From assembly GCA_934119955.1 (NCBI GenBank), contig CAKOSZ010000001.1, forward strand, positions 46,592 to 110,591: a stretch of DNA of 64,000 bases, in the 5' to 3' direction. The translations under genes and the position numbers were made by a program. Positions 25,236 through 43,751 of the stretch are shown piece after piece. The stretch comes from an uncultured Bacilli bacterium. Its GTDB lineage: Bacteria > Bacillota_I > Bacilli_A > RF39 > UBA660. A model generated the notes under the pieces. The model was given only the letters and a program-made list of their open reading frames with translations, made no database searches and was not told the DNA's origin. Every line of letters starts with the position of its first letter. Positions within the stretch are counted from its first letter, which is position 1.

Positions 25236-26675
25236 TTATTTTTCTGTTACTAAATCTAAATCACTACTATATCTTAATACTTTACTATAATAGTCTTTAT
25301 TATTACTATTAAATAAACCATGACGACTATTAGAATAACCTACTACTATATAATCAGTTGTATTATTAATTGTACTAGCCGTATCCGGAATTGCTACAAT
25401 TATATCATTTAAAATATCGTTTTTCTTACCACCATATACTTTATGATTTAACATTTTACCATCATAATCATATTCAATTATAAAAGACTCAGTCATATTT
25501 TCTTTATATTTTAAACCATCTAATTTAATATCACTTGATTTAGTATAACCAACTGTAACTATTTTATTATCAAGTAAAATCAAGGAATTAAATCTATCAT
25601 CATTATTACCACCAAGAGTAATTTTATCTAATAATTCTCCATTTAAATCATAAATAAAGATACAAGCATCATATTTAAATAAAGTTTTCCCTTCTTCATT
25701 TTTCTCATTTGAAACATTATAACTTGAAGCAATATATAATTTATCATCTTTTAATTTAATATCAGTAAAACCAACTGCATCTGTATTAGCATAATTTTTA
25801 ACCCAAAGACGATTACCTTCTTTATCAAATTTAACAAGCATACCATAGTTACTAGCATCTTTACCACAAACAATATAACCATCAGTAACCATTACTATAC
25901 TTCCAAAAATACCTGATTTGTTACCACCAAAATTATTAGACCAAAGAATATTACCATCAAAATCATATTTAACAATAATACCTCCTCCATTTTGATGATT
26001 ACCTATTTCCATATTTTCATAAATACTTTGACCAATAGCAATAAAACCATCATCAACTACTAAAACTTTTTTAAATTCAGTATCACCTAAAACTTGATAA
26101 TTTTTACTCCATAAGAAATTACCATCTAAATCATACTTAGCAATTAAACCATCTCTTGTATTTAAACTAAGTTGTTTTTCTTCATAAACATAACTTCCAA
26201 CAGCAATAAAACCATCACTAACTTTACTAGCATCATAAAAACATGAATCATAATCACTTACAAAAGTCTTTTCAAAAATAACATTTAATTCTTTATCAAG
26301 TTTTACTAATTTAGCCTTTTCAGCATAAATAGTTTGAGTTTCTTTATCATTTTTATATTCATAAGTTTTCATTTCATTATAACGACTATGTTTAAAATTA
26401 CTAGAGCCTGCTACAATATAATAAGAATCATCAACATTTGAAATATTATAATAAGCATCTATATAAGTTAACTTATTTTCTCTTGTAATATGCATAACTA
26501 ACATAACAATAAGTTCAATACTTACAATAGTTAAACATAATAACCCAATTAATTTGGCTTTTCTTTTAAAAGATATACTATCTATATTTTTATCTTTTTT
26601 ATCTTTTTTAATCTTTTCTACTTTTTCTTTTTTATTTTTAATTTTCTTATTATCTTTTTTATTCACTTTACTCAC
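25236..26675 (-). CDS. Membrane-anchored beta-propeller repeat (SBBP-like) protein
   Basis: K-rich cytoplasmic tail and one TM helix. About 6 repeats of D.DGN.LWSKN..G....G.....DG(F/Y)I.(V/C)G. Confidence 0.5.
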   Translation of the reverse strand: MSKVNKKDNKKIKNKKEKVEKIKKDKKDKNIDSISFKRKAKLIGLLCLTIVSIELIVMLVMHITRENKLTYIDAYYNISNVDDSYYIVAGSSNFKHSRYNEMKTYEYKNDKETQTIYAEKAKLVKLDKELNVIFEKTFVSDYDSCFYDASKVSDGFIAVGSYVYEEKQLSLNTRDGLIAKYDLDGNFLWSKNYQVLGDTEFKKVLVVDDGFIAIGQSIYENMEIGNHQNGGGIIVKYDFDGNILWSNNFGGNKSGIFGSIVMVTDGYIVCGKDASNYGMLVKFDKEGNRLWVKNYANTDAVGFTDIKLKDDKLYIASSYNVSNEKNEEGKTLFKYDACIFIYDLNGELLDKITLGGNNDDRFNSLILLDNKIVTVGYTKSSDIKLDGLKYKENMTESFIIEYDYDGKMLNHKVYGGKKNDILNDIIVAIPDTASTINNTTDYIVVGYSNSRHGLFNSNNKDYYSKVLRYSSDLDLVTEK

Positions 26676-28233: not shown

Positions 28234-29937
28234 TTATTCTGCACTTATAATATAAGGATCATTTATACTTCCTGTTCCAGATATAATATTCGTTTGGGAT
28301 CCAAGACTTAAGACTGGACGAAGAGCGTCATAGCTATCAGGATCCGGCCAGCCTAAGTCAATGCCGTAGCGCCAGTCAGCCGCCCCCACGGAAAGCCCAG
28401 CAATAGGAGAAAGAAGCCAGAAAGCTGCTTGATCATTTAGCATCCAATTATTATAATTTTTATTTGCATAAACTGCTAAAACTTGATCCCCCCAACCACT
28501 TGGAATTCTTGCATATCCTAAATCACTTGGATATAATAAAGCAATTTTTCCATTCCATGTTGCTTGATTATTTTCTATTATATTACTCTCATCTCTTTCC
28601 ATTGCATATATTTCTTTTAATGTTCCATCATCTAATCCACCTAAATAATATTTCATATTCTCAATTAAATTACTATTTTCTAAACTATTTAAATAATTTT
28701 CATTTAAGTAATACATACTTACTGCTTTTGTCCAATCGTTATAATTCGTTTCTACACTTGATGGGTTATTCCAATAAAAATATTTATATTTTGTTCCTGT
28801 AACTTCTGTATTAAATACTTGATAAGTAATATTATCTTTTGTAATAGTCGCTGGCACTTCTGTACTTAAACTAATTGGTTCATCTTTTACTAGTTTTATT
28901 CTTTCAGCCTTTTCCCCATTTGCATTTTCTTCATTAAATATCCCCACTATTCTCCAAGTCTCATTATTAAATGTTACATAATTTCTTATTCCACTATCTG
29001 TTGGTATTGTTTGATTATTCTTTATACTTATAGTTGTTCCTCCAATATCAGTGCATGTCTTACCCATTATGTCAAACAAATCATTGTCTTCTGTTACAAC
29101 AAATTCTACATCACCTGATACATAACATGCTGTTTGAGGACAAGTATTACCTGAAACAGATATATTATAATCATTTGTTCCATCTGTATATGTACAATAA
29201 TTTCCTATTCCAGAATAACGATATTCTCTTATTGTTCCACCTGTTGTTGCTAGATCACCATCTGTGTTAACAGCCACAAGTCCATCTTGATTAGCACCAT
29301 TATATCTATTTTTTACTGTTTCAACAAAATTTGTTGGTGCTTCATATTTTCCATTTACATTTACTTTTATACTTGCAAATAAGTTTGACCAATCAGTTAA
29401 ATTATAGTCACAATTATCTGTTATATCTCCACTACATATATTAACACTTTCATCTATCCACATATATAATCTATATATTTTTGTTATTTTACTTGTTGTG
29501 TTTGCAGGTATTGTACTACTATATATTGTTGTATTATTAATATTTTCTATTGTTAATTTATCTTGTAAAATATTTTCTTGATTATTGTTAACTTCAACTA
29601 AACTAAATTTCAAGAATTTGTCTTCTATTCTTGTTTTATTTGCTTCTGTATCTCCATGAACTAATTCGATATTATAATTTACTCCATATTTTGTATGAGT
29701 ATTTTTTCCATCTATAGTAAATTCAAAATATTTAGTAGGATCATAAGTGCTACTTGGCATAGCACCTTCTATTTTAAATTCATTTGTTTCATTATAATGC
29801 ATATAGATGTCCCCTACTACAAGACTTGAATTATTAATACTTACCTTATTATAAGTAAAAAATGCAAATGATACTCCTATTGTTAATACTAAGATTGCTA
29901 TTACACTTAATACTATTATTAATTTTTTATTTTTCAT
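28234..29937 (-). CDS. Large secreted/surface-anchored protein (paralog A), N-terminal signal-anchor, Cys-containing extracellular region
   Basis: MKNKKLIIVLSVIAILVLTIGVSFAFF signal/TM. C-terminus ...RPVLSLGSQTNIISGTGSINDPYIIS shares a module with the 47683 gene. Confidence 0.5.
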   Translation of the reverse strand: MKNKKLIIVLSVIAILVLTIGVSFAFFTYNKVSINNSSLVVGDIYMHYNETNEFKIEGAMPSSTYDPTKYFEFTIDGKNTHTKYGVNYNIELVHGDTEANKTRIEDKFLKFSLVEVNNNQENILQDKLTIENINNTTIYSSTIPANTTSKITKIYRLYMWIDESVNICSGDITDNCDYNLTDWSNLFASIKVNVNGKYEAPTNFVETVKNRYNGANQDGLVAVNTDGDLATTGGTIREYRYSGIGNYCTYTDGTNDYNISVSGNTCPQTACYVSGDVEFVVTEDNDLFDIMGKTCTDIGGTTISIKNNQTIPTDSGIRNYVTFNNETWRIVGIFNEENANGEKAERIKLVKDEPISLSTEVPATITKDNITYQVFNTEVTGTKYKYFYWNNPSSVETNYNDWTKAVSMYYLNENYLNSLENSNLIENMKYYLGGLDDGTLKEIYAMERDESNIIENNQATWNGKIALLYPSDLGYARIPSGWGDQVLAVYANKNYNNWMLNDQAAFWLLSPIAGLSVGAADWRYGIDLGWPDPDSYDALRPVLSLGSQTNIISGTGSINDPYIISAE

Positions 29938-30162
29938 ACTTAACTCCTTTTCTTGAATAATTGCCCCTCTATTCTAATATAATTTTATTTTAACGTAGTT
30001 TTTATTTATTATAAAGTATTTTTATGTCTAAAAAAATCGTATTATGTGGACTATAAAAAAACATGATTAAGTTTACAGTTTATCTGTAATTTTTAGTAAT
30101 GTTTTTAAGTATCAATTATATATAATAATTCTTTACAAACTCTTTTACTTAGTTGGTTTTTC

Positions 30163-30246
30163 TTAGATATTTCTACCCCCCCCCCATGTAAAGTTTTGTA
30201 AAGTTAGAGTTTGATTAGTTGTAAAGCAATTATTTGGTTTATTCAT
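30163..30246 (-). CDS. Mini-ORF (27 codons, MNKPNNCFTTNQTLTLQNFTWGGGRNI) containing a G10 homopolymer; upstream ORF/leader peptide of surface locus A
   Basis: AAGGAG RBS 8 nt before the ATG. Conserved with the mini-ORF at 49740-49817. The G-run encodes the GGG tail. Confidence 0.4.
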   Translation of the reverse strand: MNKPNNCFTTNQTLTLQNFTWGGGRNI

Positions 30247-30272
30247 GAAAATCAACTCCTTATCATGTAAAA

Positions 30273-30301
30273 ATCATATCATGTTTTTATATATTTTTCA
30301 A
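30273..30301 (-). promoter_or_regulatory. Sigma-A-type promoter TTGAAA-17-TATGAT driving the mini-ORF/surface locus A
   Basis: Read on the minus strand: TTGAAA (30301-30296), 17-nt spacer, TATGAT (30278-30273). Confidence 0.55.
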
Positions 30302-30362
30302 GGGGTATTAGTTGCATTTTTATTAATTTTATGATATAATATGCGTACTTTGGGGGAATAAT

Positions 30363-31370
30363 ATGTTTACATGTAATAATATTAACTTATTAACTTTTAC
30401 TTATTATTTAAAGATTGTAATAGCCTCTTGTATGACTATTGTTCCTTTTATCTATTTAGAAATGATTTTTATTAGAATGATTAAATATAAGAAAAAGTTT
30501 GGTTTTATTAATAAATATTATAATAAATATTATATAAAAAAACAATTAAAAATATTTAGTCATTCTTTAATAATTTTTGTACTTGCATTTATATTACATA
30601 ATACTTTAAATAAAGAAACTAATGTTTGTTATAACTATGCTACTCCTAAGGTTTATAATAAATATAAAAGTGTTTATAAATCTTTAAAAAATAAAAATAT
30701 AAATGAAAATATTAAAAATAATTATTTAGAAAATACTATTATAATTGCTTTAAATGATAATAGTTCTAATAATAAAACTAATAATTTTAGTAACTTAGTT
30801 AATGTGGTTAAAGAAGAAGTTCAGGAAGAAGAAAAGAAAGATACTTTTAATTTAAATGAAACTGATTTAAATATGCAAAATAAAGTTTATGTTTCAAATG
30901 GAGTATTTTATTATCCAAAATATCAATATGGTAATTATAAAACTTATACAGGTATATCTTGTCCTAGTAATCCTTTAAATGAAGGTTTTAATAATCCTTA
31001 TGGATATAATAATTATTTTTATACAAGACTAACAAAGTTTGTTGAAGAAGCAAGTAAACTTGGTTATAAAATAACAATTAGTAGTCAAGGTTGTAGAAGT
31101 TATCAAACTCAGGTTCATTATTATAATACAATGACAAGAGGAAGAGCAGCACCTCCTGGTTATTCTTATCATGGTCTTGGTATTGCATCTGATTTAGAAT
31201 TTTATCATAGTGATGGTAGTGTTTGTGGTTATGGTAGAAATGATTATAATTGTCCTAGTATGGGTTGGGCTCATAATAATGCTAGTAATTTTGGTTTAAC
31301 ATTTCCTCTTTTAAATGCAAGTTACAGGGAAGATTGGCATATTGAACCTATAAATAAAAGTGGCTATTAA
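30363..31370 (+). CDS. M15 family metallopeptidase (VanY-like D-Ala-D-Ala carboxypeptidase), membrane-anchored
   Basis: SYHGLGIASDL (SxHxxGxAxD) and EDWHIE motifs of the LAS/M15 fold. N-terminal TM. Confidence 0.7.
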   Translation: MFTCNNINLLTFTYYLKIVIASCMTIVPFIYLEMIFIRMIKYKKKFGFINKYYNKYYIKKQLKIFSHSLIIFVLAFILHNTLNKETNVCYNYATPKVYNKYKSVYKSLKNKNINENIKNNYLENTIIIALNDNSSNNKTNNFSNLVNVVKEEVQEEEKKDTFNLNETDLNMQNKVYVSNGVFYYPKYQYGNYKTYTGISCPSNPLNEGFNNPYGYNNYFYTRLTKFVEEASKLGYKITISSQGCRSYQTQVHYYNTMTRGRAAPPGYSYHGLGIASDLEFYHSDGSVCGYGRNDYNCPSMGWAHNNASNFGLTFPLLNASYREDWHIEPINKSGY

Positions 31371-31377
31371 ACCACTT

Positions 31378-32208
31378 TTATTTATATATAATTTTTTTTA
31401 CTTTGTTTGGTATTTCATTTGTTATCGTAATTCCCTCATCTATTACTTTAAAATTAAAATAATCATCCTTAAATACTTCCCCATCTACTTCACATAAAAT
31501 TGGAACTAAACTTTTAATTTCTAAATTTGAAGTTCTGAAAGTATTAACTTTTTTATCTAGAAAATGGGTTCCTTTAAATATTTTTAAAAAGCAAATTATC
31601 TCTTCTAGTCTTGTCATATTATTTGCAATTATAACATTAAAAATTTCTTTATCTAAACAATAATTTGGATTAATTGGAACTCCATTTCCATAATACTTTC
31701 CAAGACAAATTGCAAGTATATTTATTAAATATCTATTGTTATCTAATAATACTTCTTCTTTTTCATATGTTAGTAAACTTTTTAATATATTTCTTTGATA
31801 TTTTAAAAATTGTATTTTATCTTTATTAACATCATCTACTATTTTAGCATCTACTCCAAGAGATGCTATATTTATAAACTTTTTCCCATTTACATCTCCA
31901 ATTGATACTTTTTTAGTTGAAACATCTTTTATTATTTTATAATAATCATTACCAGAACCCAATGGTACTACATGGAGTTTTGAATTTGATCCATATATTC
32001 CATTTACAACTTCATTTAAGGTGCCATCTCCTCCTACACTATAAACAATAGAATTAGGATATTTTTTAGTTATTTCTTGTAAAAAAGTAATTGCTTCTCC
32101 CTTATTTTTAGTAACATGAATTAAAGTATCATCTAAATTCATTAAACTTGGTATTAGTTCTACACCTTTTTTATTACCTGCTTTTGGATTAATTATAAAT
32201 ATATTCAT
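31378..32208 (-). CDS. Diacylglycerol kinase family lipid kinase (YegS/DagK-like)
   Basis: NPKAGNKKG and SVGGDGTLNEVVNG DAGK catalytic-domain motifs. Confidence 0.8.
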   Translation of the reverse strand: MNIFIINPKAGNKKGVELIPSLMNLDDTLIHVTKNKGEAITFLQEITKKYPNSIVYSVGGDGTLNEVVNGIYGSNSKLHVVPLGSGNDYYKIIKDVSTKKVSIGDVNGKKFINIASLGVDAKIVDDVNKDKIQFLKYQRNILKSLLTYEKEEVLLDNNRYLINILAICLGKYYGNGVPINPNYCLDKEIFNVIIANNMTRLEEIICFLKIFKGTHFLDKKVNTFRTSNLEIKSLVPILCEVDGEVFKDDYFNFKVIDEGITITNEIPNKVKKIIYK

Positions 32209-32245
32209 TTTGCACCTCTTTCATTTATTATATATAAAATTTAAT

Positions 32246-32290
32246 AAAATAAAAAGCCTCATAAACATAAGTTTACAAGGTTTATTATTT
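32246..32290. terminator. Bidirectional rho-independent terminator
   Basis: CCTCATAAAC-ATAA-GTTTACAAGG hairpin with flanking A-run and T-run. Confidence 0.5.
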
Positions 32291-32396
32291 TAAGATTAAC
32301 GTTCGTTCTTCATGAGAATTGGTTACAGTATTTAAGTGCCATATCCATAGTTTGCTTAAAATGACTACCATTAACTTTTAGATATTTTAGGATTTT

Positions 32397-33332
32397 TTAA
32401 TAAAATTTTGATATTTTTTTCAAAATACTTCTAGTAACTTTAATTGCTTCATAAGCTTGTGTATCAGTTACCTCATTACCCTTGTGAATAGCTTTATTTC
32501 TAATTTCTGTTACAACTTTTATATCAGCAAAAGATATATCAAAATTTAACAAACCTAATAACTTATATTTTGCATATAAAGTCTTATAATCTTCTGATAA
32601 ATTCTTAACATTCAATTTCTTTTGTATTTCTTCTATTTTGGAAGTTATTGCAATTTCACAGGCAGTTGATAAATCTAAAATGCATTTTCTATTATCATAT
32701 CTTTCATACGATTCAATTCCACTAACCAAAAAATCATACTCTATTGGAATTAGAATTTGTTTGCTAATTATATTTAGCATTTTTTCTAATTGTTTTTTTG
32801 TTATAGACTTATTATCATCATGTATATGCATAAATATTTCTTCTTCTTCGATATTAGGTATTCTTTTACCACTCAAATCATCATATAAATTTATTTCACA
32901 ACTTCTTTGCTCAGCAAAAGCATTTGGACATATATCTTCATTTATTATATAGCATAACTTATAAAGTGATTGTATTGTTTTATTAATACCGTCGTATATT
33001 AAATTAATTTTTTTCTCTTGCACAGGTTCTTCTAACTCTACCGACACAACTACTTTTTCAATCTCACTACTAACCTCAGGATAACTACGAGGCATACCAT
33101 AAAAAATTTCTTTATTTCCAACTTTATATTTTCTAGAAATTGGTGGTGATGATAGAGGGCAATGTAATTTATCTTTAATATCATCGTCTTGCCATTGTGA
33201 AGGAATATCAGGAAAATGCAGTTTCATATCCAATCCATTAATACTAAAATCAAATATTTTGCCTAAAACATTTTTTGCAAAATATCTATTAAAATTCACA
33301 TCTACGAATGAAATTATAATTTTATTTTTCAT
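32397..33332 (-). CDS. Hypothetical protein with C-terminal Rx4H (HEPN-like) motif
   Basis: 311 aa. C-terminal EIRNKAIHKGNEV supplies an Rx4H motif embedded in predicted helices. No other recognisable domain. Confidence 0.35.
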   Translation of the reverse strand: MKNKIIISFVDVNFNRYFAKNVLGKIFDFSINGLDMKLHFPDIPSQWQDDDIKDKLHCPLSSPPISRKYKVGNKEIFYGMPRSYPEVSSEIEKVVVSVELEEPVQEKKINLIYDGINKTIQSLYKLCYIINEDICPNAFAEQRSCEINLYDDLSGKRIPNIEEEEIFMHIHDDNKSITKKQLEKMLNIISKQILIPIEYDFLVSGIESYERYDNRKCILDLSTACEIAITSKIEEIQKKLNVKNLSEDYKTLYAKYKLLGLLNFDISFADIKVVTEIRNKAIHKGNEVTDTQAYEAIKVTRSILKKISKFY

Positions 33333-33503
33333 ATTTTATCTCCTAATCATTACTACAAAATCTCTTTTTTCTATTGGTACAATTGTTAACAATACAATTT
33401 TTTATTTTAAGTATATGTTTCGATATTACCAATTTCACCAAAGTTATATTTAATAAATATTTCAAATTCAGCAAGTTAATCAATTTTTTGTCAAAAACAC
33501 ATG

Positions 33504-33538
33504 AAAGAAAAACCCCATAAACATTGAGTTTATGAGGT
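33504..33538 (-). terminator. Terminator of the rplM-rpsI operon
   Basis: Minus strand: CCUCAUAAAC-UCAAUG-GUUUAUGGGG followed by a U-run. Confidence 0.6.
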
Positions 33539-33556
33539 AAATTTTTAAGTAAATTC

Positions 33557-33970
33557 CTAACGTTTACTAAATTGTGGAGCACGACGAGCCTTTTTAAGAC
33601 CGTATTTTTTACGTTCTTTAACTCTTGGATCACGAGTAATAAATCCAGCGGCTTTTAAAGATTTTCTTAAACTGTTTTCACTATCTTTACTAGTAGTTGC
33701 ATCATATTCAAGTAATGCTCTTGTAATTCCTAAGCGAATTGCACCTGATTGTCCTCTAAATCCTCCACCAAATGTAGTTACTTCAACATCAAATATTTCT
33801 TTTGTGTTAGTTAATACAAGTGGTTGTTCTAAATCCATTACTAAGGTTTCAAATGGAAAATATTCACGAACATCACGTCCATTTACTGTAATCTTACCAG
33901 TACCATTAACTAATTTAACTTTTGCTATACTACCTTTTCTTTTTCCAGTAGCTTCGTATTGTTTTGCCAT
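33557..33970 (-). CDS. rpsI: 30S ribosomal protein S9
   Basis: C-terminal ...[12 protein letters not shown] and GGG..GQ..A...G..RAL motifs. Confidence 0.95.
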
Positions 33971-33982
33971 CTTATTATCCTC

Positions 33983-34413
33983 CTATTTAATTTCTATTTG
34001 AGTAGGTTTTTGTGCCATATGAGGATGAGTTTCACCTTCATAAACAAATAACTTCTTACCCATAGCTCTTCCTAAACGATTGTGAGGTAGCATTCCTTTT
34101 ACTGCCCTTTCAATCATTTCAATTGGATAATTTTCACGCATTTCTTTTGCATTTCTTTCTCTTAATCCTCCTGGATACATAGAATGATTATAATACATCT
34201 TATCATTCAACTTATTTCCAGTTAAATTAACTTTCTTAGCATTGATAATAATAACGTAATCACCACAATCAACGTTTGGTGTATAAGTTACTTTATGCTT
34301 TCCTCTTAAAATATGAGCTGCTTTGGTAGCAACACGACCTAATGATTCATCCTTAGCATCAATTATATACCAAGAACGAACAACATCTTCTTTTCTTTGT
34401 ATAAAACTTTTCA
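33983..34413 (-). CDS. rplM: 50S ribosomal protein L13
   Basis: MKSFIQRKEDVVRSWYIIDAKDESLGR is the canonical L13 start. AGGAGA RBS before this ATG; the six-frame ORF extends 27 codons further without an RBS. Confidence 0.9.
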
Positions 34414-34529
34414 TATATTCTCCTATTCTTTTAGTTTTGTGTTCCCACCACAAAACTACCCGGGAATCAATGTACCGACATAGATTATACCACAAATACT
34501 ATCTAAATGTCAACTATTTTTCCCATTTT

Positions 34530-35168
34530 TTAACGTGTTTTTCTATATATTTTTGGATTTTGAGAGACAGATACTCCAACGTAGGTTTCTTTAACCCTAG
34601 CAACTTCCAATTTTCCATTAATATAATCATTAACTTCCCCCAACTTTTTTATCTTTTTACTATAATCTTTATCATGAATACTTCCATACATTCCAAGGCA
34701 AACTTTATTATATAAACTTAAATAATTAAAATTTGTAACCTCTCTTTGATCATATGGATTTGTCATATGGATATAATCATAAAACGGTATTGTTAATTTC
34801 GAAGACCTACCTTGCTTTATAGTTATTCCATTTAAATCAACATCAAAAGGATTAACATTTCCTTTATAAATAAATCTATTACCAACCACATCAAATGTTT
34901 TGGCATAAGGTGTAATTAAAATAGTTTTTTTATTATCAAAAGGTGTTGTAACTGTATCATATACACCTTTATTAAGTTCTATACCAATATTATCATCTTT
35001 AATACTAGTATGTTCTAATAAATTTTTATAAATTTCTATTCTGTTTCTTAATTCAATAAGATAGTGATAAAACTCTTCTTTATTTAAATTACTATCTAAG
35101 GAAAAATTTTGGTTATTAATTGCTGCTTGATATTGTTTTAATAATTTATTAATATATCTTTCTATCAT
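34530..35168 (-). CDS. Hypothetical protein (operon with the three upstream genes)
   Basis: 212 aa, no motif. Start 2 nt after the previous stop. Confidence 0.45.
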   Translation of the reverse strand: MIERYINKLLKQYQAAINNQNFSLDSNLNKEEFYHYLIELRNRIEIYKNLLEHTSIKDDNIGIELNKGVYDTVTTPFDNKKTILITPYAKTFDVVGNRFIYKGNVNPFDVDLNGITIKQGRSSKLTIPFYDYIHMTNPYDQREVTNFNYLSLYNKVCLGMYGSIHDKDYSKKIKKLGEVNDYINGKLEVARVKETYVGVSVSQNPKIYRKTR

Positions 35169-35169
35169 A

Positions 35170-36033
35170 CTATTTTTTCCTCAAAACTTTACATTCATTT
35201 TCCATTTCATATTCAGGATATTTTCTTTTAAACTCAATATATGAAATAACAAATGATAAATAATATGGATCTAAATTAGCAATTCTTGTAAAACGATCAC
35301 CTAAGGTATGTGTATCATCATATCCAAATTCTAAAAATCTAATATCCATTCCCCCAGATTCTCTTATATCAGTACAATTCTTTTTAAGATCATCTATATG
35401 AATAACATTTCTTACAACGTCTCTTCCTAATCTTTCTCTTAACTTATCTGCTTTATTATTACATTCATTAGAACCTATTGTTTTATGATATGGCATAGCA
35501 ATAATACCATCAATATTTGGAAATAAACGATAAAGTTCTTTAATTTTTTCAAATGATTCATGTTCCATATTATAATGAGTATTAAATATTACAAAAACAT
35601 TATCTGGTTTATTTTCCATTATATGTCTTATATAATCAACTGTTGTAATTCCAGTTTCAGCATTCTTAACAAAATTTTCATCTTTATAAACTCTTTTATA
35701 ATCAATTTTTGGATAAACTATTCTTTGTGGAACTCCATAACGCATATTTTCATCATCTTGAAAAGGAGTTTCTTCTAAAATTGCATTTAAAATAGCATAT
35801 GATTTTTTAGAATCTATTTTAAAATCTTCTGTTTCTTCATTAGCAATTAAAGAACGATATTTCTTAGTAGAACGAAAATCAATCTCCTCTAATATTTCTT
35901 GCATAATAGAAGTATTATAAACAACACCATCAACATCAATAGATAATATTGTATAGTCATCTCCTAAATCTCTTATTTTATCTCTTAATTCTCCAATTTT
36001 TTTTGAATTATAAGCCATTATTTCATCTTTCAT
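35170..36033 (-). CDS. Hypothetical protein with HAD-like DxDGV motif (possible nucleotidase/phosphatase)
   Basis: ILSIDVDGVVYNT resembles HAD motif I (DxDx[TV]). The remainder is unassignable. Confidence 0.35.
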   Translation of the reverse strand: MKDEIMAYNSKKIGELRDKIRDLGDDYTILSIDVDGVVYNTSIMQEILEEIDFRSTKKYRSLIANEETEDFKIDSKKSYAILNAILEETPFQDDENMRYGVPQRIVYPKIDYKRVYKDENFVKNAETGITTVDYIRHIMENKPDNVFVIFNTHYNMEHESFEKIKELYRLFPNIDGIIAMPYHKTIGSNECNNKADKLRERLGRDVVRNVIHIDDLKKNCTDIRESGGMDIRFLEFGYDDTHTLGDRFTRIANLDPYYLSFVISYIEFKRKYPEYEMENECKVLRKK

Positions 36034-36041
36034 AAATCCTC

Positions 36042-36776
36042 CTATTTAACTAATTTATAAGTTTTATCTAATAATCCATATGACTTAGCATAGTTATTTA
36101 TTTTATCAAATTCCAAAGTACTTAAAAATTCTTTTAACTCTGGATATTTTTCTTTTAATTTATTAAGTAAAAATTTATAAACATTTACATATTCAAGATA
36201 CATTCCTTCTTTGTTAAAATTACTACCATAAGTAATAAATCTACCACTTAAATCACATAATTTAATATCTGTACCTTTATATAATATATTTAATGTAGGT
36301 TCACACCCTCTTTGTGCTTTACTAAGATCTAAATGACTAATTTCATTATCTTCTAATTCTTTAACTGCCAATAATATATTTTCTAATATTTTTAAACTTG
36401 TTTCTAAATCTGTATCTATATAAGTTAAATCTTTATAATCTGTATGATTAAATAAATTAATACCACATACTCTATCATTTACTAAAACTACCCCTAAATC
36501 AAAATTTGTTAATTTAATACTAGGTTGCTTACTTTGTAAATATTCAATTTGTTCTCTTTCAACAAATGGTTTATTATTCCACATATAAACATTTTTAAAT
36601 ACTCTATCTGCTAAACCTAAACTATTAACTTTTAATAAACTATATAAATTCTTATCTAATTTAATTAAATCATTACCATGTAAAAAAACTGTACTTGAAA
36701 AACCATTATCACTAATTAATTTACTATTATCAATAACTGTTTTCATTTCACTACTAGTATAATTTAAATCTTTCAT
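36042..36776 (-). CDS. Protein-kinase-like fold protein (atypical kinase/phosphotransferase)
   Basis: ISHLDLSKAQRG (HxDLxxxN-like catalytic loop) followed by KLCDLSGRF (DFG-like) in a ~240 aa protein. Confidence 0.4.
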   Translation of the reverse strand: MKDLNYTSSEMKTVIDNSKLISDNGFSSTVFLHGNDLIKLDKNLYSLLKVNSLGLADRVFKNVYMWNNKPFVEREQIEYLQSKQPSIKLTNFDLGVVLVNDRVCGINLFNHTDYKDLTYIDTDLETSLKILENILLAVKELEDNEISHLDLSKAQRGCEPTLNILYKGTDIKLCDLSGRFITYGSNFNKEGMYLEYVNVYKFLLNKLKEKYPELKEFLSTLEFDKINNYAKSYGLLDKTYKLVK

Positions 36777-36871
36777 AAAACCCCCTTATTATCCCATTAA
36801 GTGTGTTTATTATATCATAAATTAAGGTTTTTGTCAAAAAAGCAAAAAAAAATTAGAAAATTCTAATTTTA

Positions 36872-37492
36872 TTAAATATTTAAATAATCATGAATTATCT
36901 TAATAACATTTTCTATTTTTTTATCAATTACATCAGTTGCTTCTACTCTTTTTAAATTCTTATGTTTACTCCAAGCATCATTGGTTCTTTTATCTAAATC
37001 AATTACTTCTTCAATATCATCTTCAAATCTTGCTGAATTAGTACTATTATTATATTTATTTTCATTATTAGTTGCAACTGTTACTAAATGAATAACCATA
37101 TCATATTCATCAATAATATCACTTTCTAATAAATTATTTTCTGCAAGTAATTTATCAAATAATTCTTGTCCAAGATAAGCCTTATTATCAATTACTCCTC
37201 TATCTGCTAAAATAATACAATTAGCATCATCTGGTAATTTTTTTATAATATCACGAAATCTTTTTTCCTTAAACATTTGTAAATTTAATATTTCATTTTG
37301 AAAATCAAATACACTCACTTTATTATCCCCAAAAGGTCTAATCCCCCAGTTAATAACTTCGGTTGCACATTCATTTAAAAGTAGAACATGATATCCTCTA
37401 CTTTCTAAATCTTCTTTTATCTTGGCAATTGTTGTTGTTTTACCAGCACAAGGTCCTCCTGTTAAAACAATTTTAGCTTTCAATACTCCCAT
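36872..37492 (-). CDS. AAA_28-type P-loop NTPase/kinase (NadR C-terminal domain-like ATPase)
   Basis: IVLTGGPCAGKTT Walker A immediately at the N-terminus, ADRG Walker-B-like. ~200 aa, typical of AAA_28 small kinases. Confidence 0.55.
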   Translation of the reverse strand: MGVLKAKIVLTGGPCAGKTTTIAKIKEDLESRGYHVLLLNECATEVINWGIRPFGDNKVSVFDFQNEILNLQMFKEKRFRDIIKKLPDDANCIILADRGVIDNKAYLGQELFDKLLAENNLLESDIIDEYDMVIHLVTVATNNENKYNNSTNSARFEDDIEEVIDLDKRTNDAWSKHKNLKRVEATDVIDKKIENVIKIIHDYLNI

Positions 37493-37587
37493 AAAATACT
37501 CCCATTTCTTTATTCATTATTATTATAATATGAATAAATAGTTTGTCAAGAAAAATTTAATTTTAATGATTTTTAAACTTAATTTTA

Positions 37588-38580
37588 TTATTTAATTTTA
37601 TTTATAGTATTAATAGCACTTGATATTAAATTACCTAGTTTTTCTATAACAAAATCTATTTCTTTGGTCGTAACTATTAAATTATAGCCAATAGGATTTA
37701 ATGTTTCAAAAATCAAATCTTTTAAAGTTGTTTCATCAAGTGTTCCTATTAAACCTAATAATTCTTTTTTTTCAAATTCATTTAAGTCTTTTTCTTCATT
37801 TAAATAATTTATATTACTACTAGGTATAAATTTATCTTTTTGATAATTATTTTTATGATAACTTATTTTTTTCATTAAAAACTTTAAAGTATCATTTACT
37901 ATTACAATACTAGATACAACTGTGGGAACTCCTATTGCAATTACTGGAATATTTATAGTATTTTTAGATATTTCCATTCTTTTATTATCTATTCCTGATC
38001 CTGGACTAATACCTGTATTAGTTATTTGAATAGTTTTTTGAATTCTTTCAACTCCAAGAGATGCAAGAGAATCTACTACAATTAAAAAATCAGGATTTGT
38101 TTCTTTTATAACTCCTAAAATAATATCTTTTGATTCAATACCCGTATTACCAAAAACATTAGGTTCTAAAATAGATACATTTCTATATTCCAACACTTCA
38201 TCTAATAAATATAAATGTCTTGTAACTACTATATTTTTTAAAACCTCATAACCAAGAGAATCTGGGGTTGATTTATTATTACCAAGTCCTATTATTAAAA
38301 CTTTATCACTTTTTTTAATTTTAGTTAGTTTTAAAATTCTTTTTAATTCTTTTATTAAAACTTTTAAAACGTTTTCATAATTAGTTTTATCTGTAATATC
38401 ATTAAAACTAATAGTTATATAATCACCTTTTTCTTTATTTAAAAAATTTTTTTCTTTAAGAGAAACATAACTTACTTCTATCCCATTTTCTTTATAATTA
38501 TCTTTTAAAAAATCATCACATTTATTTTCTATTATCAAATCAGATCTAATATTATATTTACTTAAATCTATTTCATGCAT
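37588..38580 (-). CDS. gpr: Germination protease (GPR endopeptidase, spore protease)
   Basis: MHEIDLSKYNIRSDLIIE start and IIGLGNNKSTPDSLGYEV motif match GPR. Divergent from rpsT as in Bacillus/Clostridium. The ORF extends 36 codons upstream of the conserved start. Confidence 0.8.
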   Translation of the reverse strand: MHEIDLSKYNIRSDLIIENKCDDFLKDNYKENGIEVSYVSLKEKNFLNKEKGDYITISFNDITDKTNYENVLKVLIKELKRILKLTKIKKSDKVLIIGLGNNKSTPDSLGYEVLKNIVVTRHLYLLDEVLEYRNVSILEPNVFGNTGIESKDIILGVIKETNPDFLIVVDSLASLGVERIQKTIQITNTGISPGSGIDNKRMEISKNTINIPVIAIGVPTVVSSIVIVNDTLKFLMKKISYHKNNYQKDKFIPSSNINYLNEEKDLNEFEKKELLGLIGTLDETTLKDLIFETLNPIGYNLIVTTKEIDFVIEKLGNLISSAINTINKIK

Positions 38581-38677
38581 ATTATCACCATTATTAGTAT
38601 GTATTATTTTAAAAAAAATATTGCTTTTTAAATAAATATTTGTTATTATAATAATGATTTTGAAAAGAGGTGAAAAA

Positions 38678-38941
38678 ATGCCAAACATTAAAAGTGCTAA
38701 AAAAAGAGTATTAACTAGTGAAAGAAAATGTCAAGAAAATGTTTTAGTAGATTCAAGAATGAAAAATTCTATTAAAAAATTAGAAAAAACTGTTAAAGAA
38801 GGAAATAAAGAAGAAAGTAAAGAATTATTAAAAACTACTTTCAAAAATATTGATAAAGCACAAGATATTAATATTGTTTCTAAAAATAAGGCTGCAAGAT
38901 TAAAATCTAGATTAAGTAAATCTATTAATAATATGGAATAA
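38678..38941 (+). CDS. rpsT: 30S ribosomal protein S20
   Basis: MPNIKSAKKRVLTSERK... canonical S20. GAGGTGA RBS. Confidence 0.95.
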   Translation: MPNIKSAKKRVLTSERKCQENVLVDSRMKNSIKKLEKTVKEGNKEESKELLKTTFKNIDKAQDINIVSKNKAARLKSRLSKSINNME

Positions 38942-38943
38942 AA

Positions 38944-38968
38944 TATACGTGTAAACGTATTTTTTTTG
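38944..38968 (+). terminator. rpsT terminator
   Basis: ATACG-TGTAAA-CGTAT hairpin followed by T8. Confidence 0.6.
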
Positions 38969-39044
38969 TAAACTTGAAAAAAATTTTAACAATTAAGATA
39001 TTTTTTGTATTTTTTTATTATTTTTATGATAAAATATAAATTGG

Positions 39045-39956
39045 GTGAGGCTTGTGAAGAAAGTATTATATTGGTTTGTATTTTTATTATTATTTTCTTT
39101 AACATTTTACTATCGAGAAGATATTTTAGTTTATTATAATAAATATTTATCTCCTGCTAAACAAGTACCCACTACTTTAATTAAAAATGAATATTATAGA
39201 AATTATAATTTTAAATTTGTTTCTAATACAGATAATTTTTTTCCTAGTAATAAACAGGATATTTTAAATATATATTATACTATTATTAATAGTGGCATGG
39301 ATGATTTTACTTTTTATTGTAAAGATGAATATGAAACTTGTCTTGAAGATGTAAAGAATATTGCTCATAATAAAACGATTTTATCAAGTATTAATGATTA
39401 TGTACATCCTTTCAATAGTTTTAGTCATATTGAAACATCATATGATAAACTTGGTAAAATAATGGTTAAAATTAGTCATAATTATGATGATGAGATGAAA
39501 GTGCTTTTGAATTATAAAGTTAATGAAGTAATAAAAGATAATATTACAAGTAGTATGGATGATACAGTTAAAATAAAAAAAATTCATGATTATATAATTA
39601 ATAATAGTGAGTATGATAGAAATAGAAGTGATAAGAATATTTTTGATTATAAATCTAATACTGCTTATGGAGTTTTACTTGAAGGATATGGTATTTGTAG
39701 TGGTTATACGGATAGTATGATGTTATTTTTAGAAAAAATGGATATAAAAAGTTTTAAAGTTTCAAGTGATAATCATGTTTGGAATAAAGTTTTATTAAAT
39801 AACAAATGGTATAATCTTGATTTAACTTGGGATGATCCAGTTAATAGTGATGGAAGTGATTTACTTTTACATGATTTCTTTTTAGTAAGTGATGAAGAAA
39901 TGTTAAAGATAGATAAAACTGAACATACATATGATAAAAGTGTCTATGAAGGTTAG
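39045..39956 (+). CDS. Transglutaminase-like cysteine peptidase domain protein, membrane-anchored
   Basis: GYGICSGYTDS (Cys), DNHVWNKV (His), DLTWDD (Asp) catalytic triad context. N-terminal TM. GTG start at 39045 or 39054 after GGGTGAGG. Confidence 0.7.
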   Translation: MRLVKKVLYWFVFLLLFSLTFYYREDILVYYNKYLSPAKQVPTTLIKNEYYRNYNFKFVSNTDNFFPSNKQDILNIYYTIINSGMDDFTFYCKDEYETCLEDVKNIAHNKTILSSINDYVHPFNSFSHIETSYDKLGKIMVKISHNYDDEMKVLLNYKVNEVIKDNITSSMDDTVKIKKIHDYIINNSEYDRNRSDKNIFDYKSNTAYGVLLEGYGICSGYTDSMMLFLEKMDIKSFKVSSDNHVWNKVLLNNKWYNLDLTWDDPVNSDGSDLLLHDFFLVSDEEMLKIDKTEHTYDKSVYEG

Positions 39957-39963
39957 ACACTTT

Positions 39964-40170
39964 TTATTTTAATGGATCGTACCCGCCTTTACTAAATGGA
40001 TTACATTTAAATATTCTCTTAACCCCAAGATATAAACCTTTCAAAGAACCATACTTAGTAATTGCTTCTATCATATAGTTAGAACATGTTGGATAAAATT
40101 TACAATTATAATGAAATTTACCAGGAATACGTTGATATAATTTAATTAATTTTATTAAAAATCTGCTCAT
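39964..40170 (-). CDS. yidD: Membrane protein insertion efficiency factor YidD
   Basis: YQRIPGKFHYNCKFYPTCSNYMIEAI...CNPFSKGGYDPL matches YidD. Confidence 0.85.
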   Translation of the reverse strand: MSRFLIKLIKLYQRIPGKFHYNCKFYPTCSNYMIEAITKYGSLKGLYLGVKRIFKCNPFSKGGYDPLK

Positions 40171-40246
40171 GATTTATATTTTAACTTATATTTTCAAAAA
40201 TAACAATTGCTAATTTAAATAATTTTTAGTATACTTATTAAGTAAT

Positions 40247-40320
40247 TGCCCTATGGCCAAGCGGTAAGGCAGTGGACTCTGACTCCATCATCGTTAGTTC
40301 GAATCTAACTAGGGCAACCA
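40247..40320 (+). tRNA. tRNA-Gln (anticodon CUG)
   Basis: TGCCCTA acceptor, D-arm GCC-AAGCGGTAA-GGC typical of tRNA-Gln, anticodon loop CT-CTG-AC, T-arm GTTAG-TTCGAAT-CTAAC, discriminator A plus CCA. Confidence 0.8.
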
Positions 40321-40948
40321 AATAGTAAATTACCTCTTATAAAATAAGAGTTTTTTTAATAAAATAAATAAAAACACAACATAGATAAAACATATATAAT
40401 CTTTGATAAAAAATATCTAAAAAAAATAAAAAACAATTGTATTTTCAATGCAAAAAATATATACTTATATGGAAGAGATAATTCCTATGTTAGGTGCTAC
40501 CCTCCATACTTATATAGTAAAGGAGGTGATGTGGATGAAACTATATATTTTAAAAAACAAACAAATTCCATTTCAAAGGTGGAATACTTAATTTTTGTTT
40601 TTTTAATATTAGTTATGATATTGTTATTAATAATTGCAGTATCAAAAATTCTAAAATAAAAGCACCTAACTTCATTGTAAGAAATTGGTGCTAACCAAAT
40701 ATAATTGAGGTAACACCTAACGTGCAAAAATTAGGATTATCTCTTTTTTATTTTATGCATTAATCACAACATAATACATAAAATGTCCTCTTTGTAAGAA
40801 TTGATGTTATTATACACTATTTTTATTGCAAAGTCAATCACGATAAAATGATATAACAATTACCACATTGCTAAATTAATTTTAACATATTCTTGATATA
40901 TTGTTAATACATTTTTAAACATTAATATTTTTTATAGAAAAAGAATGA

Positions 40949-42628
40949 CTAATATGTCATTCCTCCCCATTCAACAGCAGTAAATCCTACTCTTTTAAAA
41001 CTTTCTAATTTTTGTTCTTTAATGTTAACTTTTTTATCAACTTTTTTAATATGAATATTAACTCTTAATAAAGAATCAGGTGTTGGTTCGATTATTAATT
41101 TATTATTTAATTCTCTTTCCTCAGTTAATTCAAAGTAAACTAAACTTTGTTTATTATTTTCTAAAATTGGTAACCAATACATAATAAATTCATTTTTTTC
41201 TTTATCATTTAAACCAATTAAAGACATTTTTTCTTCTAAGAAATTAATTGCATTTTCCTTAGTTACATAGAATCCTTCGTTAAATGATACTTCATGATAT
41301 CTAACTTCGTCCCAGTACAAGGCATAATAATATTTGTTATTATTATCTAATAAATCTCCATTAGGTTTTGCTGTTACAACCCATTCTTTATCATATTTAG
41401 GATAAGTTGTAGTTAAATACTCAGGATGAGCAAATCTTACTTTAACCGTAGTAGTTGTTGTTGGATATAAATATAAAACCGGTTTAGCACGTCCACCCAT
41501 AGCTTCTTTAATAGGATATGTAACTATTTCACTTCCAGTATAACAATATTCCATACCATAATTATCTCCAACCTTGTTTTGATAATAAATAACTAAATAT
41601 AATCCTTCCTTTTTATCAGGTTCATTTAATTTATCTAAATCATCTCTTGAATAATAACGAGATGAATATATATCATAATTATAATTATCACTCCAAGAAA
41701 CTATTTCTTTTAAAGAACCATCACTTAAAGACTCAACAACTAATTTGTCATCTTTAACATAGATTATTTTATCTTCAATTAATTGTTTAAAGTTTTCATA
41801 CTTTTTAGATGTACTAATTAATTTACCATCAGCATTATATTTTTTAACAACATTGTTATTATATACATATAGATTATCTTTAAAGAAAGAATATTTTTCG
41901 TCCCCAATAATTTCATCAGTTGTATTTTCAAATAATAATTTTTTATCATTATTATAAATTTTTTCTATTGTTGAAGTTTCAATTTGAGAACCTAAAATAT
42001 AAAAAGAATTATTATTTAATTTATGGCTATAATATACAATTCCTCCATATTTTACTTTATCTTTTAATTCAATATTTCCATTTTCTACATTTACTAAATA
42101 AACACATCCTGTTTTATTATCAAAATCATAATAAGAAGTGCTAAGATAATTATCATCTACCTTAAATAATTCATAACTATCATAATTAGTATCAAGATTA
42201 GTTTTAACTATTTTTTGAGTTTTAACATTATAAAGTTTTAAACCATTATCATTATACAATATATAAGCAAAATCATATCCTTCAATACCTACTATCTTTG
42301 CATTTTCAGTTTCAGTTTTTAAAGTATAAGCAATAATATTACAAGATTCATTTGCTTCACTACATAAGCGATCATATTGATTCTTATAAACATTCATTGT
42401 ATATTTATAATCCGTTGTATCAACATCTTTGTTATCAACTTGTTCTTTATCATCTCCTTGGTTATTATTATTGTTGTTATTATTAGTACTACTATTTAAC
42501 TCATTATAAACAATAAATCCAACCAAACCTAGTATTATAATTATTAAAATAATGACTAATACTACTAACCCATTTTTCTTTTTTGTACTTTCCATACTCC
42601 TCCTTCTATTTATAACTAAATTATACAA
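40949..42628 (-). CDS. Membrane-anchored hypothetical protein with poly-Asn tract
   Basis: N-terminal TM (LVVLVIILIIIILGLVGFIV), N8-10 run, large extracytoplasmic Y/N/K-rich domain. Confidence 0.5.
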   Translation of the reverse strand: MYNLVINRRRSMESTKKKNGLVVLVIILIIIILGLVGFIVYNELNSSTNNNNNNNNQGDDKEQVDNKDVDTTDYKYTMNVYKNQYDRLCSEANESCNIIAYTLKTETENAKIVGIEGYDFAYILYNDNGLKLYNVKTQKIVKTNLDTNYDSYELFKVDDNYLSTSYYDFDNKTGCVYLVNVENGNIELKDKVKYGGIVYYSHKLNNNSFYILGSQIETSTIEKIYNNDKKLLFENTTDEIIGDEKYSFFKDNLYVYNNNVVKKYNADGKLISTSKKYENFKQLIEDKIIYVKDDKLVVESLSDGSLKEIVSWSDNYNYDIYSSRYYSRDDLDKLNEPDKKEGLYLVIYYQNKVGDNYGMEYCYTGSEIVTYPIKEAMGGRAKPVLYLYPTTTTTVKVRFAHPEYLTTTYPKYDKEWVVTAKPNGDLLDNNNKYYYALYWDEVRYHEVSFNEGFYVTKENAINFLEEKMSLIGLNDKEKNEFIMYWLPILENNKQSLVYFELTEERELNNKLIIEPTPDSLLRVNIHIKKVDKKVNIKEQKLESFKRVGFTAVEWGGMTY

Positions 42629-43049: not shown

Positions 43050-43751
43050 GTGTTTATGAAAAGATATAAAAATATTAAAATACCATATTTCTATTATAAT
43101 AAAATTAAAGGATGTTGTTACTTTGTTTATAATAATAAATACTATAATAGTATCTATGAGGCTACAAAAGATTATCTTGGTTATGAATTAACTTATCATT
43201 TTCTTTATAATAATGAATTAATAGAAGTTCATGATTTAGAACAGATATGTGAATATATTCTTTTAAAAGGAAGTTTTTTTATTCCGGATAAATATAAACA
43301 GGAATATAGTTTAATAGAATATCAAGAATTAAATCGATTATATAAAAATATAAATAACTTTAAATTTAAAGAATATTATTATCAAAGACCTGATTTAAAA
43401 TATTTATTAGAAGAACCAATTCCTTGTTATTTAAAACATAAATATCATAAATTATATAAAGATTATAATTATCCAAGAAAAGTATATTCTAAATTTTTAA
43501 AAAAAGAAATATTTGTTTATAAAGGTTATATTTATTATACTATAAATAATATATTAGAATTAAATTATTATTATGAATTTAATAAACCTTTAATATCAGG
43601 TTATCAAGCACATGAACATGAATTTAATTTAGTTATAAAAGCAGTACTTAATTCTTTTAAAGAATTTAAAATTTATAAAAATCAAGAAAAATTTTATAGT
43701 AAACAAGAATTAATTTTTCTTAACAAACTGATTAATAAATTAAAGAAATAA
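43050..43751 (+). CDS. Hypothetical Tyr/Lys-rich protein
   Basis: 233 aa, GAGGG RBS. Confidence 0.45.
   Translation: MFMKRYKNIKIPYFYYNKIKGCCYFVYNNKYYNSIYEATKDYLGYELTYHFLYNNELIEVHDLEQICEYILLKGSFFIPDKYKQEYSLIEYQELNRLYKNINNFKFKEYYYQRPDLKYLLEEPIPCYLKHKYHKLYKDYNYPRKVYSKFLKKEIFVYKGYIYYTINNILELNYYYEFNKPLISGYQAHEHEFNLVIKAVLNSFKEFKIYKNQEKFYSKQELIFLNKLINKLKK

Follow-up and report, generated by a model that had tools for sequence, protein, structure and literature searches.

The locus and its four genes

The 64,000-nucleotide stretch of DNA analysed here (the window) belongs to contig CAKOSZ010000001.1 of an uncultured Bacilli bacterium (GenBank assembly GCA_934119955.1), and the subject of this analysis is a group of four genes, named A to D, which lies upstream of the ribosomal protein genes rplM and rpsI. 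The evidence described below suggests that A on the one hand and B, C and D on the other would be transcribed separately, and points tentatively to a kinase (B) and a phosphatase (C) that would act on small phosphorylated metabolites. The open reading frames (ORFs) are co-directional, all on the minus strand, and fill positions 34530-37492 of the window, whose G+C content is about 23%. Gene A (36872-37492) codes for a predicted AAA_28, thymidylate-kinase-like protein of 206 residues; gene B (36042-36776) for a protein of 244 residues with a minimal protein-kinase fold and of an undescribed family; gene C (35170-36033) for a divergent HAD-fold, phosphatase-like protein of 287 residues whose motifs I and II are set apart by a large insert; and gene D (34530-35168) for a lineage-specific protein of 212 residues, the third of the B-C-D unit. 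The gap between A and B is 95 nucleotides, C starts 8 nucleotides past B with a GGAGG site in front of it, and D starts 1 nucleotide past the stop codon of C. Upstream of A is gpr, the germination protease gene.

These four ORFs, already delimited in a previous sequence-only reading of this DNA, are real genes, given that identical copies of the A-D proteins turn up on 16-83 contigs of other samples and that diverged homologues with intact frames are also found. One of the contigs with identical proteins, of 316 kb, comes from a Hadza human-gut metagenome. The related loci are found in metagenome-assembled genomes labelled as uncultured Bacilli, Erysipelotrichaceae or Clostridia and recovered from guts, among them those of rabbits and the sheep rumen.

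A search of Pfam, NCBIfam, PHROGs and PADLOC gave no family match for B, C or D, in agreement with the earlier view that the group is not a known conserved operon. Also, no match to B, C or D was obtained with tblastn against 50,697 phage genomes, two scans of IMG/VR for relatives on viral contigs returned nothing, and literature searches on AAA_28/HAD/kinase operons and on dimeric dUTPase with a kinase gave nothing relevant. Neither the families of B, C and D nor the A/B-C neighbourhood are, then, described in the libraries and literature searched, the folds themselves being familiar, and B and C represent new families within known superfamilies. The lack of a family is less significant than it might appear, because 5 of 10 sizeable neighbouring ORFs of the window (25236-26675, 28234-29937, 40949-42628, 43050-43751 and 46842-47630) are also without a Pfam match at E 1e-5 or better.

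Gene A encodes a predicted thymidylate-kinase-like protein

The protein encoded by A carries the P-loop sequence GGPCAGKTT at residues 12-20 and matches AAA_28 (PF13521) with an E value of 2.9e-15 and 57.3 bits, above the gathering cut-off of 27, over model positions 1-151 of 164, which upholds the P-loop kinase assignment of the sequence-only reading. The AAA_28 family includes the ribosylnicotinamide kinase domain of NadR, the type of kinase to which A had then been compared. No NadR model is present among the NCBIfam matches of A at E 0.1 or better, and neither PnuC nor the nicotinamide mononucleotide (NMN) adenylyltransferase NMNAT was seen in any neighbourhood examined; A therefore presents neither the model match nor the gene linkage of a NadR-type ribosylnicotinamide kinase. 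On the other hand, a profile of nine orthologues aligns residues 8-199 of A with the thymidylate kinase of Aquifex (PDB code: 2pbr; E 4.4e-4), practically along the full length and including the P-loop, the DR motif and the RFE lid motif with its arginine. However, A scores 27.9 bits against the dTMP kinase equivalog model (TIGR00041), far below the cut-off of 83.25. Against PADLOC, a 14.7-bit P-loop match to mad8 was obtained and nothing more.

The identity of A among relatives is 62-79%, like that of neighbouring housekeeping genes. Moreover, a protein 33% identical to A, annotated as an AAA family ATPase, is encoded on an actinobacterial megaplasmid, indicating that the family is broad. Based on these profile matches, A is classified as a predicted AAA_28/thymidylate kinase-like P-loop kinase.

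Gene B encodes a putative minimal member of the protein kinase superfamily

The motifs of B are H148-L-D150-L and D175-L-S-G178. The sequence-only reading had described HxDLxxxN and D-L-S-G elements in this protein; the second of these and the kinase-like fold were recovered, whereas the literal HxDLxxxN is absent from B, its Asn (N163) being displaced to 13 residues after D150, instead of 5, owing to an 8-residue insertion. The canonical spacing is found only in the wider B family. Within this family (25-57% identity), K39 is invariant and the conservation of G25, D150, N163 and D175 reaches 90% or more, and hidden Markov model (HMM) alignments with STK17B, EGFR and CDKL3 place D150, N163 and D175 at the positions of the HRD Asp, the catalytic-loop Asn and the DFG Asp, respectively. 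All the catalytic residues of the protein kinase superfamily (Gly-rich loop, β3 Lys, catalytic-loop Asp and Asn, and DFG Asp) have a counterpart in B, and its model adopts a bilobal, protein-kinase-like fold.

A word-indexed search of 5.8 billion clusters yielded 32 homologues of B, all unnamed, and a profile search of 1.84 billion representatives yielded 167 relatives, all of about 220-300 residues, the family comprising about 170 clusters at 50% identity in Bacilli with a G+C content of about 22-27%. When 133 distant relatives were compared with Pfam, Pkinase was matched by 41 of them (best E 3.6e-8) and ABC1 by 11, with a few matches to Kdo, APH or RIO. The family profile matched 759 kinase sequences of the PDB (best E 4.3e-8), and the top structural relatives of B are Hanks-type or eukaryotic protein kinases, such as PknB, Csk and PKR. 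By itself, the B sequence gives only weak matches against the PDB (STK17B, E 0.17) and no match to Pfam Pkinase (PF00069) at E 0.1 or better. The kinase-like fold proposed earlier is nevertheless supported by the structure matches, the Pfam matches of the relatives and the HMM alignments of the catalytic residues.

Despite this similarity, B differs from the Hanks-type kinases (PF00069; PknB from M. tuberculosis, PDB code: 1mru; Csk; PKR) in several respects. It has only 244 residues and lacks the PF00069 match. In its model, about 13 residues separate the DLSG motif (175-178) from the next long helix (189-205), after which only two short helices follow, so an activation segment ending in APE and the docking helices G-I are absent and the C-lobe ends after an F-like helix. 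Also, no APE-like conserved motif appears in the family alignments. The catalytic Asp and Asn are separated by the 8-residue insertion, and at position 76, in what may be the C-helix region, there is an invariant Gln, which may or may not take the place of the usual conserved Glu. Concerning aminoglycoside phosphotransferases and choline kinases, B neither matches the APH (PF01636) or Choline_kinase models nor has these enzymes as its closest structural neighbours. The RIO and Bud32 families, ribosome- or tRNA-modification-associated ATPases of archaea and eukaryotes, are also minimal atypical kinases, but B has no RIO- or Bud32-specific sequence match and the genomic partners of its family are instead HAD and dUTPase_2 proteins. 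Taken together, the sequence comparisons suggest that B is probably an active, minimal member of the protein kinase superfamily that lies outside the described families.

Two homologues of B, one encoded in L016 (3004-4497, plus strand) and the other the protein P0097, are longer, with 497 and 505 residues, due to a C-terminal extension of about 250 residues built of leucine-rich repeats of about 22 residues (L.NV.LP...), for which the only Pfam match is to LRR_EndoS, at E 0.18. In L016, no C gene follows the long B homologue. A fusion of B with C was considered for this locus and rejected, the 497-residue protein being B plus a repeat-rich tail, without C.

Genes C and D

The DVDGVV sequence that had been recognised in C as HAD motif I is present, although at residues 33-38 (D33-V-D35-G-V-V) and not at the start of the protein. 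In the C family, D33, D35, K194 and D214 are invariant, D222 is nearly so, and position 151, at the end of a strand, is Thr or Ser; the four catalytic motifs of HAD enzymes (DxD, Ser/Thr, Lys and the acidic motif IV) can all be located in C. The structural model, of medium confidence (mean predicted local distance difference test, pLDDT, 74.9), suggests a Rossmann-like core with a large insert after motif I, and the top five Foldseek matches of this model are all HAD hydrolases (E 3e-3 to 2e-2; template modelling scores 0.31-0.49), the best being YfnB (PDB code: 3i76) with E 3e-3 and a probability of 1.0. The insert, of about 110 residues organised in helices and a β-hairpin, lies between motifs I and II, at the position of the C1 cap. 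A C1 cap or large insert at this place generally goes with small-molecule substrates.

At the sequence level, the similarities are weaker. The Pfam Hydrolase model is matched below threshold by 6 of 13 C relatives (best E 0.0062), one relative has a weak match to NIF, the family of FCP/SCP protein phosphatases (E 0.0044), and C itself gives weak PDB matches to a sialyltransferase and to SSM1 (E 0.02-0.08). The match of motif I is to the Sdt1/SSM1-type nucleotide phosphatases (E 0.07-0.08), HAD enzymes that are pyrimidine nucleotidases. Compared with the C1-cap HAD phosphatases (YfnB from B. subtilis; the Sdt1/SSM1-type structures, PDB codes: 3nuq and 3onn), C shares motifs I-IV and, according to its model, would share the Rossmann-like core with a large insert after motif I; however, it reaches the threshold of no Pfam HAD model, and the β-hairpin and the N-terminal helix that the insert includes were not found in the matched structures. 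The motifs, the top fold matches and the weak Pfam matches of relatives agree with the HAD assignment made before, and C is thus regarded as a predicted divergent HAD-fold, phosphatase-like protein. The search recovered 13 C homologues, all unnamed, and more diverged copies were located through synteny.

Only three close homologues of gene D exist among the 5.8 billion clusters, a further relative being a gene 34% identical in the same position of L009, and no match was found in Pfam, NCBIfam, PHROGs, PADLOC or the phage genomes, with nothing credible in the PDB. D is a young accessory ORF, and its inclusion in a conserved cluster, as first proposed, does not hold, since it occurs in 2 of 15 lineages only.

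Two putative transcription units

A consensus promoter and terminator scan was run over positions 33400-38800. It produced 47 promoter-like sites, a number not above that of shuffled sequence; however, the perfect 12/12 sigma-70 matches are only three, and they lie in the gaps upstream of A, B and rplM. The promoter of A (37522..37549, minus strand) is of the type TTGACA-16-TATAAT, with 12 of 12 matching positions. That of B-C-D (36809..36837, minus strand), TTGACA-17-TGaTATAAT, has an extended -10 element, with a 12/12 match plus the TG, and the promoter of rplM-rpsI (34484..34513, minus strand), TTGACA-18-TATAAT, also with a TG and a 12/12 match, marks the downstream limit of the B-C-D unit. 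Between A and B, moreover, a hairpin of 9 bp, all A/U (36849..36870, minus strand), is followed by a U run (36836-36848) and represents a candidate weak intrinsic terminator of A. The hairpin is weak (minimum free energy -5.4 kcal/mol, z -1.98) and was missed by the consensus terminator scan, which demands G-C pairs.

Given the perfect promoters in the gaps just in front of A, B and rplM, gene A is probably monocistronic, and B, C and D would constitute a separate transcription unit. The four genes had been considered a single operon, for which one promoter and no internal signal would be expected; instead, an extended -10 promoter and the hairpin with its U run separate A from B, and in several relatives A is distant from, or absent near, B-C, so a single operon is improbable. 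The consensus character of the B-C-D promoter would be consistent with strong constitutive expression. In 11 of 13 related loci, a perfect TTGACA-17-TGnTATAAT immediately precedes B (or C, if the locus has lost B), irrespective of the identity of the upstream gene (A, SASP, NAGPA-like or another).

A short stem-loop, apparently covarying, is observed in many relatives directly after the conserved -10 box, in the 5' untranslated region (UTR) of B or C (L010:4790-4867, L005:7925-8000, L013:5945-6000 and L007:7950-8000). Its stem reads GCA...TGC in L007, L013 and L022 and GCC...GGC in L010 and L005. It may act as a 5' stabiliser or as an operator. The leader of B in the window is shorter and lacks this stem-loop.

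Conservation of the locus among relatives

The comparison comprises 15 non-redundant loci of a close clade of uncultured Bacilli of about 23% G+C, to which a scan of JGI metagenomes added one new locus only. The earlier proposal of a shared role was tied to conserved clustering, and the A-B-C cluster does recur in these relatives. C is directly downstream of B in 11 of the 13 loci that have B, usually 8-18 nucleotides apart, A is found at most 7 kb upstream in 9 of 15, and D in 2 of 15. A adjoins B or C in seven loci (the window, L001, L007, L008, L009, L016 and L022), while A and B are interrupted by one gene in L011 and by five unrelated genes in L002. In the latter (L002:1666-7798), the intervening genes encode an AAA_14/DUF4143 ATPase, two unknown proteins, an MBOAT acyltransferase and an Ig-like/transglutaminase surface protein. 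C occurs without B in L005/L006 and L022, and B without C in L015 and L016.

The identity to the window proteins is 62-79% for A, 44-57% for B, 27-44% for C and 34% for D, and within L009 the values of 53, 40 and 34% for B, C and D compare with 74-89% for gpr, rpsT and A. The flanks of the relatives are syntenic as well, with a small Tyr/Gly/Pro-rich gene, an M29 peptidase, a deaminase, a DnaC-like gene and a pseudouridine synthase, so adjacency by itself is weak evidence of function. The tight spacing of B and C together with their dedicated conserved promoter would be stronger functional evidence than adjacency.

A different arrangement is observed in relatives 31-40% identical to B, where a dUTPase_2 gene (PF08761) lies directly downstream and overlaps the stop codon of B by 4 nucleotides. 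This occurs in three of the four contexts with downstream sequence (P0102, L024 and L025), which also have a tRNA U5-methyltransferase and a pseudouridine synthase as common neighbours. On the contig of P0102 (GCA_016648615.1), the dUTPase_2 gene is followed by an ORF of 308 residues; if this ORF were a member of the C family, the order B-dUTPase_2-C would be ancestral. Since dUTPase_2 proteins are all-α nucleoside triphosphate (NTP) pyrophosphatases, the place of the HAD protein C would be taken there by another nucleotide phosphohydrolase. This coupling and the thymidylate-kinase-like character of A provide indirect support for a nucleotide-related role.

A possible kinase/phosphatase module

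The predicted folds, residue conservation, promoter layout and linkage of B and C across relatives are observations, whereas the pathway that we infer from them is a proposal, to which a probability of roughly 0.4 is given. In this proposal, B and C would form a kinase/phosphatase module for small, probably nucleotide-derived phospho-metabolites, with A as a separately transcribed neighbour that maybe acts on the same pool. In the core chromosome of this uncultured gut Bacilli lineage, of about 23% G+C, the locus would be divided into two neighbouring transcription units. The first would contain A, a well-conserved, probably monocistronic, thymidylate-kinase-like AAA_28 P-loop kinase, and the second B, C and D, presumably driven by the conserved perfect extended -10 sigma-A promoter. 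B appears to keep the residues for ATP binding and catalysis (G25 of the Gly loop, Lys39, Asp150, Asn163 and Asp175), and C, a predicted HAD-fold phosphatase, the DxD nucleophile/acid pair next to an insert of about 110 residues at the C1-cap position. Then, B by phosphorylation and C by dephosphorylation would take part in different steps of a single pathway of small phosphorylated metabolites, the putative substrates being most likely derived from nucleotides or nucleosides, and A may work on the same pool under separate regulation. Of the original suggestion of a nucleotide or small-molecule phosphorylation-dephosphorylation pathway, its plausibility is kept, with the indirect help of the dUTPase_2 coupling in distant B relatives, and the pathway itself is hypothetical.

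Several points weigh against this proposal. The substrates proposed for B and C are purely hypothetical; confidence in the C model is only medium, with weak fold matches (E 3e-3); and the leucine-rich repeat-like extensions on two B homologues would suit protein binding, although Pfam did not confirm the repeats. Each of the two genes has been lost without the other, L005 and L022 having kept only C of the pair and L015 and L016 only B, and hence B and C are not obligate partners. Also, the small Tyr/Gly-rich gene, the M29 peptidase and the deaminase are syntenic too, so adjacency may be in part narrow-clade synteny, and the three dUTPase_2 contexts may belong to one clade and not be independent observations. 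A more specific form of the proposal, in which the B family would be a nucleoside or nucleotide kinase on a stripped-down protein-kinase fold, filling in these genomes a step of pool sanitation or of (deoxy)nucleotide salvage together with a nucleotide hydrolase (a dUTPase_2-type pyrophosphatase or the HAD protein C), is improbable.

Among the explanations that compete with a metabolic module, one possible, if doubtful, is that B and C are a protein kinase and a protein phosphatase of a signalling pair with a PrkC/PrpC-like logic, that is, a minimal Hanks-like kinase and a HAD phosphatase having D or other proteins as targets, A being unrelated. PknB, Csk and PKR as top structural relatives of B, the predominance of Pkinase among the Pfam families matched by its distant relatives, the alignment of its catalytic loop with the HRDLxxxN...DFG of protein kinases, the repeat-domain fusions in L016 and P0097, the weak NIF match of one C relative and the close spacing of the two genes, as in a kinase-phosphatase arrangement, are all in line with it. 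However, the excess of protein kinases among the matches comes in part from their over-representation in the PDB and Pfam, and the B model is devoid of activation loop, APE motif and substrate-docking helices. Moreover, known HAD protein phosphatases are capless or small-capped, and C has a large insert at the C1-cap site. The distant B relatives pair with a nucleotide pyrophosphatase and not with a phosphatase, and B and C each occur without the other. The separate losses of B and C would also fit a second explanation, equally doubtful, according to which the four genes share no pathway and are functionally independent lineage-specific or housekeeping genes kept together by inherited synteny of a narrow clade. 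The syntenic block that includes the M29 peptidase, the deaminase, the DnaC-like gene and the pseudouridine synthase, the own promoter of A and its frequent displacement or absence, the restriction of D to 2 of 15 lineages and the abundance of familyless genes in the neighbourhood (5 of 10 ORFs without Pfam match) are expected from it. It is less easily reconciled with the B-C spacing of 8-18 nucleotides, maintained in most relatives at protein identities of 27-57%, with the single conserved perfect promoter that serves B-C, and with a kinase fold beside a phosphatase fold, an association unlikely to be functionally neutral. In addition, the B-C neighbourhood has outlasted changes of the upstream gene (A, SASP, NAGPA-like and others), which indicates selection on the B-C unit itself.

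A toxin or antibiotic-modifying cassette had also been put forward; as a defence or toxin-antitoxin system (a toxic kinase with an antidote phosphatase) or as a drug phosphotransferase, this explanation is very improbable. The evolution of B, C and D is faster than that of the genes around them (in L009, identities of 53, 40 and 34% against 74-89%), B has the kinase fold in common with aminoglycoside phosphotransferases, and a few of its distant relatives weakly match APH. Nonetheless, a PADLOC search at E 1 or better gave no matches for B, C and D, these proteins have no phage or viral-contig relatives in the collections searched, and the genes stand in stable core-genome synteny, so the suggestion finds no support; there is no sign of a defence, phage or plasmid origin in the A-D locus. 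A role in sporulation, based on the adjacent gpr and on the SASP genes of relatives, was judged less likely too because the conserved consensus sigma-A promoter drives B-C.

Returning to the metabolic module of B and C, co-transcribed pairs of a kinase and a HAD phosphatase that act on successive small-molecule intermediates are known from ADP-heptose synthesis (HldE/GmhB) and methionine salvage (MtnK/MtnX), and MtnK also has a protein-kinase-like fold. However, no sequence relationship to these enzymes is known, and the remaining genes of such pathways (isomerase, nucleotidyltransferase, enolase and others) are absent from the B-C neighbourhood. If the proposal is correct, B would define a new minimal branch of the protein kinase superfamily. 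This branch would occur only in gut Bacilli that are low in G+C and for the most part uncultured, its links being with nucleotide phosphohydrolases and not with signalling proteins, and it would add an enzyme class to the nucleotide or small-metabolite metabolism of organisms whose annotation is difficult. A pair of protein kinase and HAD phosphatase, for its part, would be an unusual bacterial signalling module. In either case, the four small proteins are a tractable biochemical target, and neither outcome would be a surprise in principle.

Neighbouring features

Downstream of D, rplM (33983-34414) starts 115 nucleotides past the end of D and is followed by rpsI (33557-33970), after which the consensus scan placed a terminator-like site (33512-33538). 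The leader of rplM (34415-34483, minus strand) contains G+C-rich segments (cccgggtag...ggtgggaac) that are unusual for this genome, and no Rfam ribosomal-leader family matches it at the gathering score. A scan of positions 30000-42000 with Rfam found a single tRNA and no other RNA family. Between rpsI and a diacylglycerol-kinase-like gene, an ORF of 311 residues (32397-33332, minus strand), also called as a gene in the public contig, has as its sole family match in Pfam, NCBIfam, PHROGs and PADLOC a sub-threshold one, to a DUF4145-like C-terminus (E 0.015).

In nearly all relatives, a small conserved gene, convergent to C and without a Pfam match, is present (minus strand; L009:8376-8663, L005:8872-9132, L013:7626-7889 and L011:4797-5090). 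It encodes 80-97 residues with many Tyr, Asn, Gly and Pro (MYxNYNIPQN...DRFxGGGFLxPFLLGGVGGYLxGRP...PIPVYFP...YY), and the M29 aminopeptidase gene invariably comes after it; both are missing from the window. Finally, a comparison of the window (34415-34530) with L009 (7716-8711) locates a synteny break exactly after D: the two loci share the upstream gpr, rpsT and a transglutaminase-like gene, whereas on the downstream side the next genes are the small gene and the M29 peptidase in L009 and rplM-rpsI in the window.

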